DNA of 47,730 bases from Candidatus Aminicenantes bacterium (GCA_022865785.1 JALHTJ010000205.1:1-47730), one strand, 5' to 3'; positions 23,108 through 27,697 are shown, numbered from the stretch's first letter. Made by a program: numbers and translations. Notes: a model not told the origin generated them from the sequence alone.

Positions 23108-24391
23108 TCAGCGGACGAAAGCCTTGCGGCCGGCATACTGCGCCGCGGCGCCGAGCTCCGCTTCGATGCGCAGCAGTTGGTTGTATTTTTCCACCCGCTC
23201 ACCGCGGCAGGGGGCGCCGGTCTTCAGGTGCCCGGTGGCCATGGCCACAGTGAGGTCGGCGATGAAACTGTCGACCGTTTCGCCGCTGCGGTGCGAGACC
23301 ATCGCCCCCCAGCCGGCGGCGCGGGCCATTTCGATGGCCGCCACGGTTTCGCTTAAGGTGCCGATCTGATTCAGTTTGATCAGCACGGCGTTGGCCGCCT
23401 TTTCCTTGATGCCGCGCTCAATGCGCTTGACGTTGGTGACAAAGAGGTCATCGCCCACCAGTTCGACCTTGGCGCCGATCTCGAGGTTCAACATTTTCCA
23501 ACCTTCCCAGTCGTCTTCGGCCAGGCCGTCCTCCAGGACCACGAGCGGATATTTTTTCGCCCAGTCGACCCACATAGCCACCATCTGCTTCGAGTCGATC
23601 TTGCGCTTTTCAGTGCGCAGGTGATAATACCCATCCTCGTAAAAACTGCTGGAAGCGGGATCCAGGGCAATGGCTATATGATCGCCGGGCTTGTAGCCGG
23701 CCGCGGCGATCGCCTGCAGGATCAGTTCGACCGCCTCGGCGTTGGACTTCAGCGCCGGAGCGAAACCACCCTCGTCACCTACCCCGGTGGAATAACCGGC
23801 ATGCTTCAAAACCTTTTTCAAGGCGTGATAGGTTTCCGTGCCCCAACGCAGGGCTTCGCGAAAACTGGGGGCGCCGACCGGGGCGATCATGAACTCCTGC
23901 AGGTCGGTTCCCTGCCAGTTGGCGTGCACGCCGCCGTTCAAAATGTTGAAACATGGCACGGGCAGCAGGTGGACTTTTTCGCCGCCCAGGTAGCGGTACA
24001 GGGGCAGTCCGGCGCTGGCGGCGGCGGCGCGGGCCACGGCCAGGCTCACGGCCAGGATGGCGTTGGCCCCCAGCCGGCCCTTGTTCTCGGTGCCGTCCAG
24101 GGCGATCATGACCTGGTCCACATGCTTCTGGTCAAAAGCGTCCTTGCCCTGGAGCGCAGCGGCAATCTCGCCGTTGACATGACCGACCGCCTGCAGAACC
24201 CCTTTGCCGTTGTAGCGCTTGTTGTCCTCGTCGCGCAGCTCGCAGGCCTCGTGCACCCCGGTGGAAGCGCCAGAAGGGGTGGCGGCACGGCCCAGGGCCC
24301 CGTCCTCCAGCAGCACCTCGGCTTCCACGGTCGGGTTACCGCGCGAATCCAGTATTTCCCTGCCGAAAACCTTTTTGATTCCTTTGCCCAT
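23108..24391 (-). CDS. eno: Enolase (phosphopyruvate hydratase)
   Basis: [49 protein letters not shown]...[18 protein letters not shown]. 427 aa, full length. Confidence 0.97.
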
Positions 24392-24500
24392 GTTATTTCT
24401 CCATTTTTTTTACTGAAAAAATTCTCCGTTATTATAGCAGATAATTGGCCGCAATGAAAAATATTTGTGCGCGCAACAGCGCCCAGAACATTCCGGCTCC
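24044..24500. repeat. Direct repeat copy 1: the 5' ~350 nt of eno plus its RBS, promoter and upstream region
   Basis: It aligns by hand with 27278-27610 (same orientation). Apart from two deletions in copy 2 there are only scattered substitutions. Similarity fades beyond about 24500-24530. Confidence 0.85.
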
Positions 24501-24530
24501 AGCAATCATTAAAAAAAGCCCTGCCGGCTA

Positions 24531-24558
24531 TTGATATTTCAAAAAATTGTCCTATAAT
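24531..24558 (+). promoter_or_regulatory. Near-consensus sigma70-type promoter of the protease/OMP cassette
   Basis: TTGATA (24531-24536), 16 nt, TATAAT (24553-24558), followed by GGAGGA and ATG 24612. Confidence 0.55.
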
Positions 24559-24611
24559 GCCATCTTGCAAAGATAATTTTATTAATCTGTCAATTTTTGT
24601 GGAGGAAACAA

Positions 24612-26201
24612 ATGAAAAAACAATTGCTGTTAATGACATGGGTGTTTTTGGCGGCGGCTGCCTTACCGTCAGCCGATGTGGGTCCATCTCTATTGTACTG
24701 GGATAACACGCTGCAATCTCAGAAAGTATCCTCCGCACAAAGCCTGGCGGAGTTGCGGACTTTTTTTGACGCGGAAATGGGCAAAGGCAATCTGGTGCTG
24801 GACCTGGTGCAGGTCGACACTATCGCCAAAATGGAACATCGTCGTTATAACCAATTTTACAGGGGTATCCCGGTTTTTGGCGGACAGTTGGTATTTCATG
24901 AAAAGAGCGGTCGATTAACTGGATTGAATGGCGAGTACTACTCCATTAATGCAGTTGCTACCCAACCGAAGCTGAACAGTCCGGAAGCAGAAAAGATATT
25001 CATGCAGTTTCTTGCCTGGCAAGATACATTGGAGTTGAGCGAACCGAGCGTGCTTTACATCTATCCCGTTTCCGATGATGAGTACCGTCTGGCTTATCGC
25101 GTCACGGTGAGCCAGGAGCTGGGATTTTCCCAAACCGGGCTGATTGATGCCTTCGATGGCACGGTTTTACTTTCTTTTTCAAATATCAAAGACGCGCAAG
25201 CGGTCATTGGCATCGGAACCGGATATCATAATGATCAAATGAAACTGGTGCTTTCCCAGGATAATATCGGTTACTGGATGGCCACAGATGACACAAGTAT
25301 CCGGCCGGTCAAGCAGCTCACGCTGGATTACAATCATAGCATTTACAACAATCAGTCCGAGGTACCATCGAGCTCGAACGGCGTTTTTGCCAAGGATACC
25401 AACGTCAATGTGCATACCTACCTGGGCTGGGTATACGATTACTATTATCTGATGCATGGCCGTCACGGCATTGATAATCATAATTTGAAAATTGTCGCCT
25501 ATAACCATATTTTTAGTTCCAGCTTGCATGATAATGCCTATTGGGATGGTACCAATAAATACATGGTATTCATGGATCCATTGAATACGCAGTGGCAAAT
25601 CGGCGCCGGGCTGGATGTGGTCGGGCATGAACTCACCCATGGGGTTACCGATTACACGTCCAAGCTGATATATCAATTCCAATCCGGGGCATTGAACGAA
25701 GCGTTTTCGGATATTATGGGAACGATCATCGAATTTCATTTTCAACCGGCCGGGGCCGGTTTTAACAAGGCCGATTGGGTTGTGGGCGAGGATATCTACC
25801 CGACCTATAGCAGCACAAACTACATGCGCAGTCTTGCCAATCCCAATGCCAAAACCACGAGTTATGGGCCCTATCCCTGCCATTTGAGTCAGTATATCAA
25901 TCTTCCCGGAAGCAATGACTACGGAGGAGTGCACTACAACTGCACCATTTTCGGGCATGCCTTTTATTTGCTGGCCAATGGCGGCACCAACCCCATATCC
26001 CATCGTGCCGTCACCAGCATCGGCATTGCCAAAGCAGCCCAGATTTACTACCGGGCCTTTACCCACTATCTGACTTCAACCGCCAGTTTTGTCCAAGCCG
26101 CCAACGCACTGCTCCAGTCAGCAAAAGATTTATATGGGGCGAGCAGCGCCGAATACGGACAGGTTTTGCAGTCGCTGTTGGCTGTCGGCTTTACCGCCTA
26201 A
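24612..26201 (+). CDS. Secreted thermolysin-like M4 zinc metallopeptidase
   Basis: Signal peptide MKKQLLLMTWVFLAAAALPSA. Zinc site VVGHELTHGV (HExxH) plus GALNEAFSDIMG (the third ligand Glu). An N-terminal propeptide-like region is present. Confidence 0.9.
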   Translation: MKKQLLLMTWVFLAAAALPSADVGPSLLYWDNTLQSQKVSSAQSLAELRTFFDAEMGKGNLVLDLVQVDTIAKMEHRRYNQFYRGIPVFGGQLVFHEKSGRLTGLNGEYYSINAVATQPKLNSPEAEKIFMQFLAWQDTLELSEPSVLYIYPVSDDEYRLAYRVTVSQELGFSQTGLIDAFDGTVLLSFSNIKDAQAVIGIGTGYHNDQMKLVLSQDNIGYWMATDDTSIRPVKQLTLDYNHSIYNNQSEVPSSSNGVFAKDTNVNVHTYLGWVYDYYYLMHGRHGIDNHNLKIVAYNHIFSSSLHDNAYWDGTNKYMVFMDPLNTQWQIGAGLDVVGHELTHGVTDYTSKLIYQFQSGALNEAFSDIMGTIIEFHFQPAGAGFNKADWVVGEDIYPTYSSTNYMRSLANPNAKTTSYGPYPCHLSQYINLPGSNDYGGVHYNCTIFGHAFYLLANGGTNPISHRAVTSIGIAKAAQIYYRAFTHYLTSTASFVQAANALLQSAKDLYGASSAEYGQVLQSLLAVGFTA

Positions 26202-26211
26202 GGAGCATATC

Positions 26212-27222
26212 ATGAGAACTCTAAAATGTTTGTTGCTGATATTGGTCATGGCCGTGCTGGTTTTGCCTGCCGCCAACCTGAAGGTCAAAATCAAGGCCCA
26301 GAAGGCCAATGTGCGGGCCACTGCCAATATTTCCGGCCGGGTTATGCTTCAGGTTTCGGCCGGGATGATATTCGACGTTATCGAAAAGCGCGGTGTCTGG
26401 TACAAGGTGCAATTGCCGGCTAAGGGTGTCAATCCGGCCCAGACGGGCTTCATCCATGGCAGTGCCTTGACAGAATTGGGCGAGGAAGTTGCGGCGCCGC
26501 GCCAGCCCCGGTCGCAGTCCAAAAAAGCGGTTAAGTCCCGTCCGCTTGAGATTAAAAAATTCAAACGCTTGTCTTTCCGCGGTTCTTATTTCATGGGTTT
26601 TAGCGCGGAGACGCCGACCAGTACCTATACACCGACCATCTACCATGAACAAGCCAGTTTTATTACATCCTATGAAGCCAAGAAGGGGAATACCATCGAT
26701 GCCGCTTTGGGCTACAAGTTTTCTCCCGCTTTGGGCGTTGAGGTCGGCGGATCCGTCGCTTCCCGCGATGTGGCAGCTGCAATGACTGCCGCAGTTCCCC
26801 ATCCCTTGCTTTTTGGCAATCCGCGCCAGGCCACCGGCAGCGCGGGCTATGAATTAAAGGAAACCGACCTTTACTTAAACCTGATGTATACTTTCACTAT
26901 GAAGAGTTTGGCGATCGACCTGTTCGCCGGGCCCTGTTATGTCATGGCCGAGACCACGGTTGTGACAGGGTATACGGTGACGGACGCCTATCCCTATACC
27001 CAGGTGAATGTCACCTATGCCTCTCAGGCGGTGAAAAAGAATGCTTTTGGTTTTGATGCCGGTATTGCAGTTGGGTATTACTTCGGCGATACTGTGGGCC
27101 TGGTGGTAAGTGGCCGCTTTATCAGCGCCAAGGCTAAATTTGATACCGCAACCGATGTCCCGGGCGTTGAATACAAACTGGGCGGTCTCCAGGCCGGGGT
27201 GGGGTTGAAAATTAAATTCTGA
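26212..27222 (+). CDS. Outer-membrane protein: N-terminal bacterial SH3 domain plus a C-terminal beta-barrel
   Basis: ATG at 26212 follows AGGAG. Signal peptide [22 protein letters not shown]3b-like block [37 protein letters not shown]. Alternating beta-strand pattern ending in ...GVGLKIKF with a terminal Phe. Confidence 0.7.
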
Positions 27223-27502
27223 GAAATAAAGAAAAATAATACTCTGCCTGGGAGGATTTTTTTCCTATAAAGGGGACGCTCACGGCCAGGATGGCATTGG
27301 CCCCCAGTCGGCCCTTGTTCTCGGTGCCGTCCAGGGCGATCATGACCTGGTCCACATGCTTCTGGTCAAATGCGTCCTTGCCTTTGAGCGCAGTCGCCGT
27401 TGACATGGCCCCGTCCTCCAGCAGCACCTCGGCTTCCACGGTCGGGTTACCGCGCGAATCCAGTATTTCCCTGCCGAAAATCTTTTTGATTCCTTTGCCC
27501 AT
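27212..27502 (-). pseudogene. Truncated, internally deleted copy of the eno 5' end (the 96-codon ORF is still open)
   Basis: [32 protein letters not shown]...[36 protein letters not shown] matches eno residues 1-32 and about 74-113. Homology to eno stops at 27278, after which the ORF reads into unrelated sequence. Confidence 0.9.
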
Positions 27503-27610
27503 GTTATTTCTCCATTTTTTTCTGAGAAATTTCTCCGCTATTATAGCAGATAATTTATCGCAAGGAAAAATTATTTATGCGTAAAAGCGGCTCTGAATAC
27601 TTCCTCAGGA
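27278..27610. repeat. Direct repeat copy 2 (eno 5' fragment plus RBS, promoter and upstream region)
   Basis: See copy 1. It carries the same TATAAT-containing upstream block (ctgctataata) and GGAGAAATAACATG as the real eno. Confidence 0.85.
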
Positions 27611-27697
27611 GCAGCAAAGAAACTGCAAACTCCAGAAATAAAAAAAGACCGGCAATTTCATCTGGCCCGCTTCATTTTATTCTTTGATTTTTATTCA

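Follow-up and report, generated by a model that had tools for sequence, protein, structure and literature searches.

The window analyzed here, a contig of 47,730 nucleotides from Candidatus Aminicenantes bacterium (GCA_022865785.1, JALHTJ010000205.1), carries between the enolase gene eno and a focA-like transporter gene two gene modules, a protease/outer-membrane protein (OMP) pair and an efflux island, and the start of eno recurs with its promoter between them. This enolase-start repeat is a genuine recombination scar joining the two modules. The orphaned second copy of the eno start, R_B, is probably the scar of one unequal, homology-anchored recombination of two haplotypes that both begin with eno, one with the protease/OMP pair and one with the island. 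The event is of an ordinary, known kind, of which the window offers a new and unusually well documented example. Below, G000 denotes the window's own genome, a metagenome-assembled genome (MAG) of 355 contigs in which the window is the entire contig C102, while G0xx labels denote genomes of relatives and L0xx labels the fetched loci and contigs.

The limits of the repeat were set by a repeat search within the window and by MAFFT pairwise alignment, and its copy number by genome-wide BLAST. Copy A (R_A, 24044-24462) consists of eno codons 1-116 (348 nt) and 71 nt of upstream DNA with the ribosome-binding site (RBS) and the core promoter, and R_B (27278-27571, minus strand) runs from codon 116 to codon 1 minus 123 nt, with the RBS, the ATG and the core promoter. 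Three blocks match, 24044-24159 with 27278-27393 (116 nt, 96% identity), 24293-24410 with 27404-27521 (118 nt, 98%), and 24406-24462 with 27515-27571 (57 nt, 86%), such that the coding parts of the copies are 96-98% identical and the promoter parts 86%; the E-values of the matches within the genome are 1e-51 and 1e-69, and BLAST found no third copy in G000. The 123 nt of R_A that are missing from R_B correspond to two deletions (7+116 or 8+115 nt depending on the alignment), between which 10 nt are retained at 27394-27403, or 13-14 nt with the MAFFT gap placement. An earlier note on this DNA had described a repeat of the eno start and its promoter in the same orientation with two deletions, and all three methods bear this out; the limits it gave hold at high identity up to 24462/27571, but beyond these positions the roughly 100 nt of further homology, to ~24545/27660, is only ~62% identical. 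The only inverted repeat found by the search of the window, one 36-nt pair with 72% complementarity, is unrelated to the borders.

What the two copies represent is indicated by L057, an 82-kb contig in ENA (k141_890230) that is colinear with window 21831-24462 and 27404-45848 at ~94% and shares the hairpin and spacer structure of the window's right-hand joint, J2. L057 is thus an exact empty-site allele, colinear on both sides, of the kind that the earlier note had predicted, with eno beside the ABC-2 permease gene; the same arrangement was found in G014 and G008, and G014 is colinear too, but with a different spacer right of the island (sp1, which L049 and L054 share). Seven coding sites distinguish R_A from R_B, two of them in codon 81. 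At codon 8, R_A has GTT (V) while both R_B and the intact eno of L057 have ATT (I); at codon 33, CTG (L) in R_A stands against ATG (M) in the other two; codon 81 is CAG (Q) in R_A, AAA (K) in R_B and AAG (K) in L057; and codon 110 is AAC in R_A, AAT in R_B and AAT in L057. Codons 106 and 85 hold private silent changes of R_B. The upstream region of R_B is 91% identical to that of G014, 78% to that of G008 and 62% to that of R_A, and R_B is therefore island-type at all informative sites, that is, codons 8-110 and the upstream region. The earlier note had called R_B a truncated copy. Judged from its sequence, R_B is the original eno start of the island haplotype, and no decayed duplicate of the eno that stands intact in the window, because the intact eno of L057 carries the R_B-type variants. 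From this allele typing it follows that island-haplotype ancestry extends without a break over R_B with its promoter, the island and the J2 spacer, and that the identity gradient of 98/86/62%, in which conserved coding sequence contrasts with fast-evolving spacer, reflects allelic divergence between haplotypes and not the age of a duplication.

Some further attempts at reading the alleles gave no usable signal. The idea that R_B is a foreign functional allele because four of five of its private changes are synonymous was dropped, since this proportion is not significant under a GC-to-AT-biased null (estimated P ~0.13). Also abandoned was an attempt to infer the direction of the event by assigning each upstream copy to one of two allelic types: only the island-linked group (R_B, G014, G008 and L057) is coherent, and the upstream regions of R_A and L050 and the up_x segment of G000 have ~60% identity each with everything else. 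Among G000, G014 and L057, sliding identity gives a mosaic in which no recombination tract end is assignable to G000.

The allele pattern also bears on two rival explanations. If the G000-type arrangement were ancestral, the eno-island genomes (G014, G008 and L057) would be products of deletion between R_A and R_B. The repeats permit such a deletion, and outside 24463-27403 the window is matched exactly by G014 and L057. A deletion that preserves eno needs its crossover on the promoter side of the 123-nt gap, however, and would leave R_A-type codons 81 and 110, whereas the intact eno of L057 is R_B-type from codon 8 to codon 110; in addition, the right-hand joint of G014 differs through its sp1 spacer, and the eno fragment was absent from the 27 other genus genomes and from the metagenome loci that were examined. 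Based on the allele typing, L057 is therefore a parental type and not a deletion product of a G000-type chromosome, and we consider an ancestral G000 arrangement quite improbable. The other explanation is that the eno start, or a larger segment, was duplicated in tandem within the genome and then underwent insertions or deletions. Duplication is a common type of event, and G008 has independently duplicated a B3/4-MFS-eno segment at the same locus, with copies that are 97.6% identical. Nevertheless, R_A and R_B differ as alleles, each matching a different haplotype, their upstream parts are just 62-86% identical compared with 96-98% for the coding parts, and at least three events would be needed starting from the L054-type order, with the allele of up_p, the upstream segment next to R_A, still unexplained. 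A duplication origin is very unlikely in view of these points.

The eno-focA interval of relatives provides the candidate parents. The 8.2-kb region was searched against 40 relatives and the protease against all 28 genus genomes (G000 included), and contigs from metagenomes and public assemblies were added. The backbone order is MFS, eno, the variable interval, focA and formate dehydrogenase. The interval is empty in G024, where eno adjoins focA across ~140 nt; it holds a Reg_prop/Y_Y_Y/LuxR gene of ~900 aa in G001, G003, G006, G013, G021, G022 and G023 (Pfam on G022 and G006), and a Tricorn-like protease with other genes in G011. G017 has the protease/OMP pair alone beside eno, followed directly by focA and with no eno fragment, and L050, L055 and L056 have the pair followed by focA with the left side different or missing. 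The efflux island is the sole occupant in G014, G008 and L057, and both modules are present in the opposite order (island, protease/OMP, focA), again with no eno fragment, in L054 and, in part, in L049. Hence, eno and focA flank at least six arrangements, among which the G017/L050 type and the L057 type are the parental ones, and the interval is, as far as synteny and domain content tell, an integrase-free variable hotspot with alternative cargo modules.

Some occupants of the interval deserve mention in their own right. The commonest, found in seven relatives (L034, L021, L025, L027, L032, L035 and L022), is a secreted LuxR-type one-component regulator; its gene stands twice in tandem in G021, and a related gene lies in G000 on contig C97 (~25136-25680). 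The duplication in G008 (L018, G008:C12, 2407-8303) reads B3/4-MFS-eno, B3/4'-MFS-eno, island, and its first eno copy is devoid of the first ~200 nt and joined instead to AT-rich DNA, from which it gains a new AAGGAGG RBS and ATG; this copy is another seam or else encodes an enolase truncated at its N-terminus.

These comparisons alter the picture of foreign DNA drawn in the earlier note, which had seen in the window the footprint of a circular element that carried an eno fragment and inserted foreign protease and OMP genes by Campbell-type integration. The footprint of recombination, with one intact and one truncated eno start, is real, and exactly two genes lie between the copies, as had been stated. 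Their G+C contents of 48.7% (protease) and 53.0% (OMP) are intermediate, as also stated, but close to the 53.2% of the whole genome; eno has 63%, and it is the efflux island, with 41%, and not the pair, that is the compositional outlier and is itself absent from most relatives. A foreign origin of the pair is not demonstrable, in that G017 has it beside eno with no fragment and then focA. This pair without a repeat in a relative is what the earlier note had named as speaking against its view, together with the eno-like fragment being an independent paralogue; the former was found in G017, and the latter does not hold, the 96-aa enolase-like open reading frame (ORF) of R_B being a pseudogene fragment and not an independent paralogue.

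A circular mobile element, plasmid-like or similar to an integrative and conjugative element, that brought foreign protease and OMP genes on an eno fragment into a G014-like chromosome by one Campbell-type crossover would explain the direct repeats with one eno intact and one truncated, the existence of empty-site alleles (G014, G008 and L057), and a product topology that is exactly that of a single crossover. Against it, the insert and its surroundings lack genes for replication, transfer or integration, and the pair, where it stands beside eno in G017, has diverged like the backbone (77-80% identity versus 75-83%), as it has in L050 (87% versus 88%). Moreover, a crossover in the promoter-proximal block is disfavored because R_B is island-type wherever the alleles can be distinguished, so the crossover must fall within ~18 nt of the left end of the repeat. 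Such an element is also not needed: in relatives eno adjoins each module, and any chromosomal fragment from such a relative therefore brings eno homology with it. We regard the circular element as unlikely, while the topology of Campbell-type integration stands.

Our preferred reading, unequal recombination between the two haplotypes, would proceed as follows. The parents would be a protease/OMP haplotype, as in G017, L050 and L055, and an island haplotype, as in L057, and the incoming DNA would be ordinary chromosomal DNA of a close relative. One exchange would be homologous and anchored in conserved flanking DNA on the side of either eno or focA. The other joint, J1 (27277|27278), would be illegitimate, fusing a point 55 nt past the OMP stop to codon 116 of the island haplotype's eno and thereby orphaning the eno start and promoter of that haplotype, from which 123 nt would have been lost since. 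Indeed, J1 is a novel joint with no extended homology, at which a filler abuts eno codon 116 and the displaced resident fragment R_B lies beyond. The same product might arise by homology-facilitated illegitimate recombination (HFIR) of a linear fragment or by single-crossover integration of a circularized chromosomal fragment from a relative.

It would also arise in two directions: the pair with an eno start may have been added to an L057-type chromosome with anchorage on the eno side, or an L057-type block from eno codon 116 onward may have been added to a G017/L050-type chromosome with anchorage on the focA side. The earlier note had treated the pair as the newcomer, which is not supported, since either module may be the second. 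For the pair as second, the close relatives G014 and L057 are devoid of it, and a displacement model places the newest module beside the intact anchor gene. For the island as second, it is the compositional outlier, the divergence of the pair from L050 and G017 is about that of the backbone, and comparison of G008 with the window gives 78% identity for MFS, 95% for eno and 91% for the island. This last contrast suggests that an eno+island block has been exchanged between lineages, but it is only a hint because eno is a highly conserved gene.

Several points weigh against the proposed recombination. The evidence fits either order of arrival of the modules, and the true parents flanking J1 are not among the recovered sequences, which bears on any microhomology at J1. 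No close relative of the protease/OMP type with eno attached was recovered among these loci, and the R_A-type allele (L33) is without a known source. The filler resembles the upstream segment only weakly, its score being reached by 10 of 300 shuffles. Competence is inferred only from a ComEC domain on contig C304, a domain that is common (10 of 14 control genomes), and Ku was not found in G000; the presence of ComEC and the absence of Ku are both weak evidence. Two more points concern the assembly. Linkage through the identical blocks shared by R_A and R_B (74, 62 and 40 nt) is provided by the MAG assembler alone, and self-BLAST of G000 gave 326 segment pairs within the bin of at least 100 nt at 85-98% identity, from which it follows that related strains co-occur in the sample. 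Many of these pairs are 1-3 kb long and lie at contig ends, which points to at least two related strains within one bin although the reported contamination is 0.04%.

The assembly was examined by checking the joints against independently built Logan contigs of run SRR19116067, which match the window at 99.99-100% over 24381-27338, 27492-34497 and 34468-37574. L047 equals window 24381-27338 at 100% and contains the eno start codon, the R_A-type upstream region, the protease and OMP genes, J1 and 61 nt of R_B with two R_B-specific single-nucleotide polymorphisms (SNPs). L048 (27492-34497) runs from the R_B start codon into the island, and L052 (34468-37574) crosses the island hairpin, J2 and focA. 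A chimera of co-occurring strains or a mis-resolved repeat would agree with the fragmented MAG, with the similar segment pairs in its bin and with the breaking of the Logan contigs exactly at the shared blocks, which is also as expected for k = 31. On the other hand, J1, the filler and the R_B-specific SNPs, as well as J2, are unique sequences within independently built contigs, and the only linear path that uses each recovered segment once is the order of the window, the alternative leaving the pair on a 3.1-kb circle with no replication gene. An artifact of assembly is thus highly unlikely. An exact search for J1 in JGI metagenome contigs gave no match, nor did a search of the literature for the run accession. 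Two of the Logan contigs abut inside the TetR gene of the island, with a 30-nt overlap at 34468-34497 and no exact TetR product recorded, which suggests a second island variant in the same sample.

No integrase, transposase, recombinase or replication gene was found by Pfam in the two modules and their neighbors, the latter showing only transporter and regulator domains, in agreement with the earlier note. Transposase domains are absent from the same set of genes, which leaves an insertion sequence or transposon without support, and tyrosine recombinases (PF00589) have no match on contig C102. Site-specific integration, in which the eno start would serve as the attachment (att) site for a recombinase encoded elsewhere, would draw on the four tyrosine recombinases that lie elsewhere in the genome and on the partial duplication of a target gene end, a classic mark of such elements. 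Yet no recombinase lies in or beside any module, and no short att core is shared, the joints varying among G000, G014, G017/L050 and L054 (eno codon 116, the promoter spacer, upstream position ~12, and beside the focA stop); the repeat, moreover, is 300-420 nt long with graded identity and is not a short identical core. We find this explanation scarcely credible. The comparison with prophage e14 in icd of Escherichia coli, an integrative element that carries a substitute end of its target gene, is instructive. As with elements of this type, the target gene is intact and one of its ends is present twice, the differences being mostly silent, whereas the window has no integrase and no fixed att core.

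The closest known process appears to be recombination in which homology at one end facilitates illegitimate joining at the other and displaced fragments are left behind, as has been documented (PMC5361080, PMC3240628). HFIR is described both for bacteria capable of transformation and for conjugation in E. coli (de Vries & Wackernagel 2002; Prudhomme et al. 2002; Meier & Wackernagel 2003, as cited in passages of PMC5361080). The window resembles it in that homology to a conserved gene anchors one end, the other is joined with no homology, mobile-element genes are not required and the product is additive. It differs in that the case is inferred from comparative sequence alone in an uncultured organism, and in that the illegitimate joint lies inside the anchor-homologous region, so that part of a gene was duplicated rather than recipient DNA deleted. 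Sequential displacement is likewise known from orphan immunity genes and orphaned 3' regions in T6SS (type VI secretion system) clusters of Vibrio cholerae and in Rhs and contact-dependent inhibition (CDI) loci (Kirchberger et al. 2017, PMC5361080). There, too, a conserved gene borders variable cargo, the older module is displaced further along with a fragment of the conserved gene, and the parental arrangements are present in relatives; in the window, by contrast, a glycolytic housekeeping gene plus its promoter takes the place of a toxin gene as anchor, the modules carried are a protease/OMP pair and an efflux operon, without effector-immunity logic, and there is a single orphan fragment. 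Campbell-type integration, as in suicide-vector merodiploids, shares with the window an insert between direct repeats, with one gene complete and one truncated, but the window has no vector backbone and no sign of a circular intermediate, and R_B is not a visible chimera of donor and recipient.

The spacers record the history of the interval further. As judged by alignment, the window has three diverged copies of the distal eno-upstream segment. The first, up_p (24442-24545), is ~62% identical to the second, ends near a remnant of the focA terminator, and gives local alignments with z = 7.6 against the R_B upstream region and z = 10.4 against the L050 spacer in shuffle controls. The second (27549-27660) is contained in up_i (27503-27697), the original eno-focA intergenic region of the island haplotype. 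The third, up_x (34867-34920), follows J2 (34871|34872) and, with the focA-proximal spacer, fills the 81 nt of 34872-34952, which show significant alignment both with the L050 spacer and with the region upstream of R_B (0 of 300 shuffles). The OMP gene is followed at 27223-27277 by a 21-nt tail and the 34-nt filler that ends at J1. The tail (~21 nt) is common to G000, L050 and L054 and continues in the latter two into a homologue of the distal eno-upstream segment, the focA terminator, and then a focA-proximal stretch that also matches the window, and the filler is weakly similar to the start of that distal segment in the L050 spacer. Each module is thus trailed by a piece of a former eno-focA intergenic region, as expected from successive additive exchanges anchored in the flanking genes. 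A more far-reaching scheme can be offered tentatively, and we doubt it in its full form: the eno-focA interval might be an accretion site at which eno and its promoter serve as a repeated homology anchor, each module brings its own eno-upstream copy, the modules are stacked by arrival, much like T6SS effector-immunity arrays though on a housekeeping gene, and the orphaned R_B promoter fires antisense into the OMP/protease pair and modulates its expression.

The right border is the conserved focA-like formate/nitrite transporter gene (34950-35804, minus strand), recognized by Pfam and by synteny in G017, G022, G023, G024 and L050. The names borne by members of the FocA protein cluster at 90% identity or more indicate that the organism is probably Candidatus Aminicenantes (Acidobacteriota). 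About 150 nt of its proximal spacer are absent from G000 and L057 (window 34918 versus L050 3060-3215), and this stretch carries the focA terminator hairpin in L050, L054 and G024; the island hairpin at 34846-34870 may now terminate focA. In the island-protease spacer of L049 (5534-5986; likewise L054, 6720-7100), ~100-nt segments match at least five other G000 contigs (C157, C250, C307, C216 and C287) at 78-84%, and may represent a small dispersed repeat element. The contig as a whole is compositionally mosaic, with a backbone of 55-62% G+C and blocks of 37% and 41% (window 8000-10000 and 27400-35000).

Among the genes themselves, intact eno (23108-24391, minus strand) encodes 427 aa with full Enolase_N and Enolase_C domains, as shown by ORF and Pfam analysis, and is the sole enolase in G000 (single PF00113 match). 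The core promoter in R_A has an extended -10 element (TGnTATAAT) and matches 10 of 12 consensus positions in a scan at 24460..24431 on the minus strand. The remnant ORF (27212-27502, minus strand) encodes 96 aa with a Pfam match to Enolase_N; its frame is preserved despite the 123-nt loss, to which no weight is given as chance alone would do so one time in three. Exact-protein look-ups of the remnant, eno and TetR matched no contigs, for eno and TetR likely because breaks between Logan contigs fall within those two genes, at the repeat blocks and around 34468-34497. R_B retains the -10 element and the same -35 element as the predicted eno promoters of G014 and L057. Its promoter points at the 3' end of the OMP gene, with no terminator predicted between the two, and transcription in that direction may occur.

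The two genes between R_A and R_B, on which ORFs, Pfam and Logan gene calls agree, are both on the plus strand. The first (24612-26201) encodes a secreted thermolysin-like M4 metalloprotease of 529 aa with an FTP propeptide, Peptidase_M4 and M4_C, whose translation contains HELTH (HExxH) and GALNEAFSD and whose limits are the same in the Logan gene call. Its promoter, TTGATA-16-TATAAT at 24531-24558 on the plus strand, matches 11 of 12 consensus positions, which agrees with the near-consensus promoter previously noted, and homology with L049 and L054 upstream of the protease starts at 24511. The second gene (26212-27222) encodes an SH3_3 and beta-barrel outer-membrane protein (OMP_b-brl) of 336 aa. 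Protease orthologues are present in just 3 of the 28 genus genomes (G000 included), a protease query against a genome contig collection gave no match, and the pair occupies unrelated contexts in G009 and L051. In the sibling metagenomes of L049 (5953) and L050 (332), protease genes that are 99.5% identical sit behind wholly different upstream DNA, with the breakpoint ~48 nt before the protease ATG, and contig L055 breaks off 42 nt ahead of the ATG, which makes the left edge of the pair a recurrent breakpoint. The genus also has a second, widespread M4 protease with 43-48% identity (G014:C102:2588-3982, plus seven further genus genomes), which was not found in G000, whose genome is 95% complete. 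The efflux island (27698-34871, minus strand) comprises by Pfam a TetR regulator, an HlyD-like adaptor, an ABC ATPase, a TolC-like outer efflux protein (OEP), a further ABC ATPase and two ABC-2 permeases, and includes its own promoter besides the hairpin at its end. It is present in G014, G008, L049, L054 and L057, and in 3 of 25 genus genomes (G000 included) in the search with the 8.2-kb region.

The window thus provides a natural example, from an uncultured lineage, of how composite gene clusters are built without mobile-element genes, through recombination of haplotypes anchored in a housekeeping gene, and relatives have yielded the two parental arrangements as well as the empty site and the composite in reverse order. 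G+C content alone would have flagged the wrong segment as foreign, and for annotation the 96-aa enolase-like ORF should be labeled a pseudogene fragment. The direct repeats would also allow excision by homologous recombination, as the earlier note had pointed out: a RecA-type exchange between R_A and R_B could remove the protease/OMP pair, which may therefore be easily lost. A crossover in the left block (24044-24159) would, however, bring the 123-nt gap, around residues 33-75, into the only eno gene of the organism, and viable deletions would therefore need a crossover within 24293-24462.

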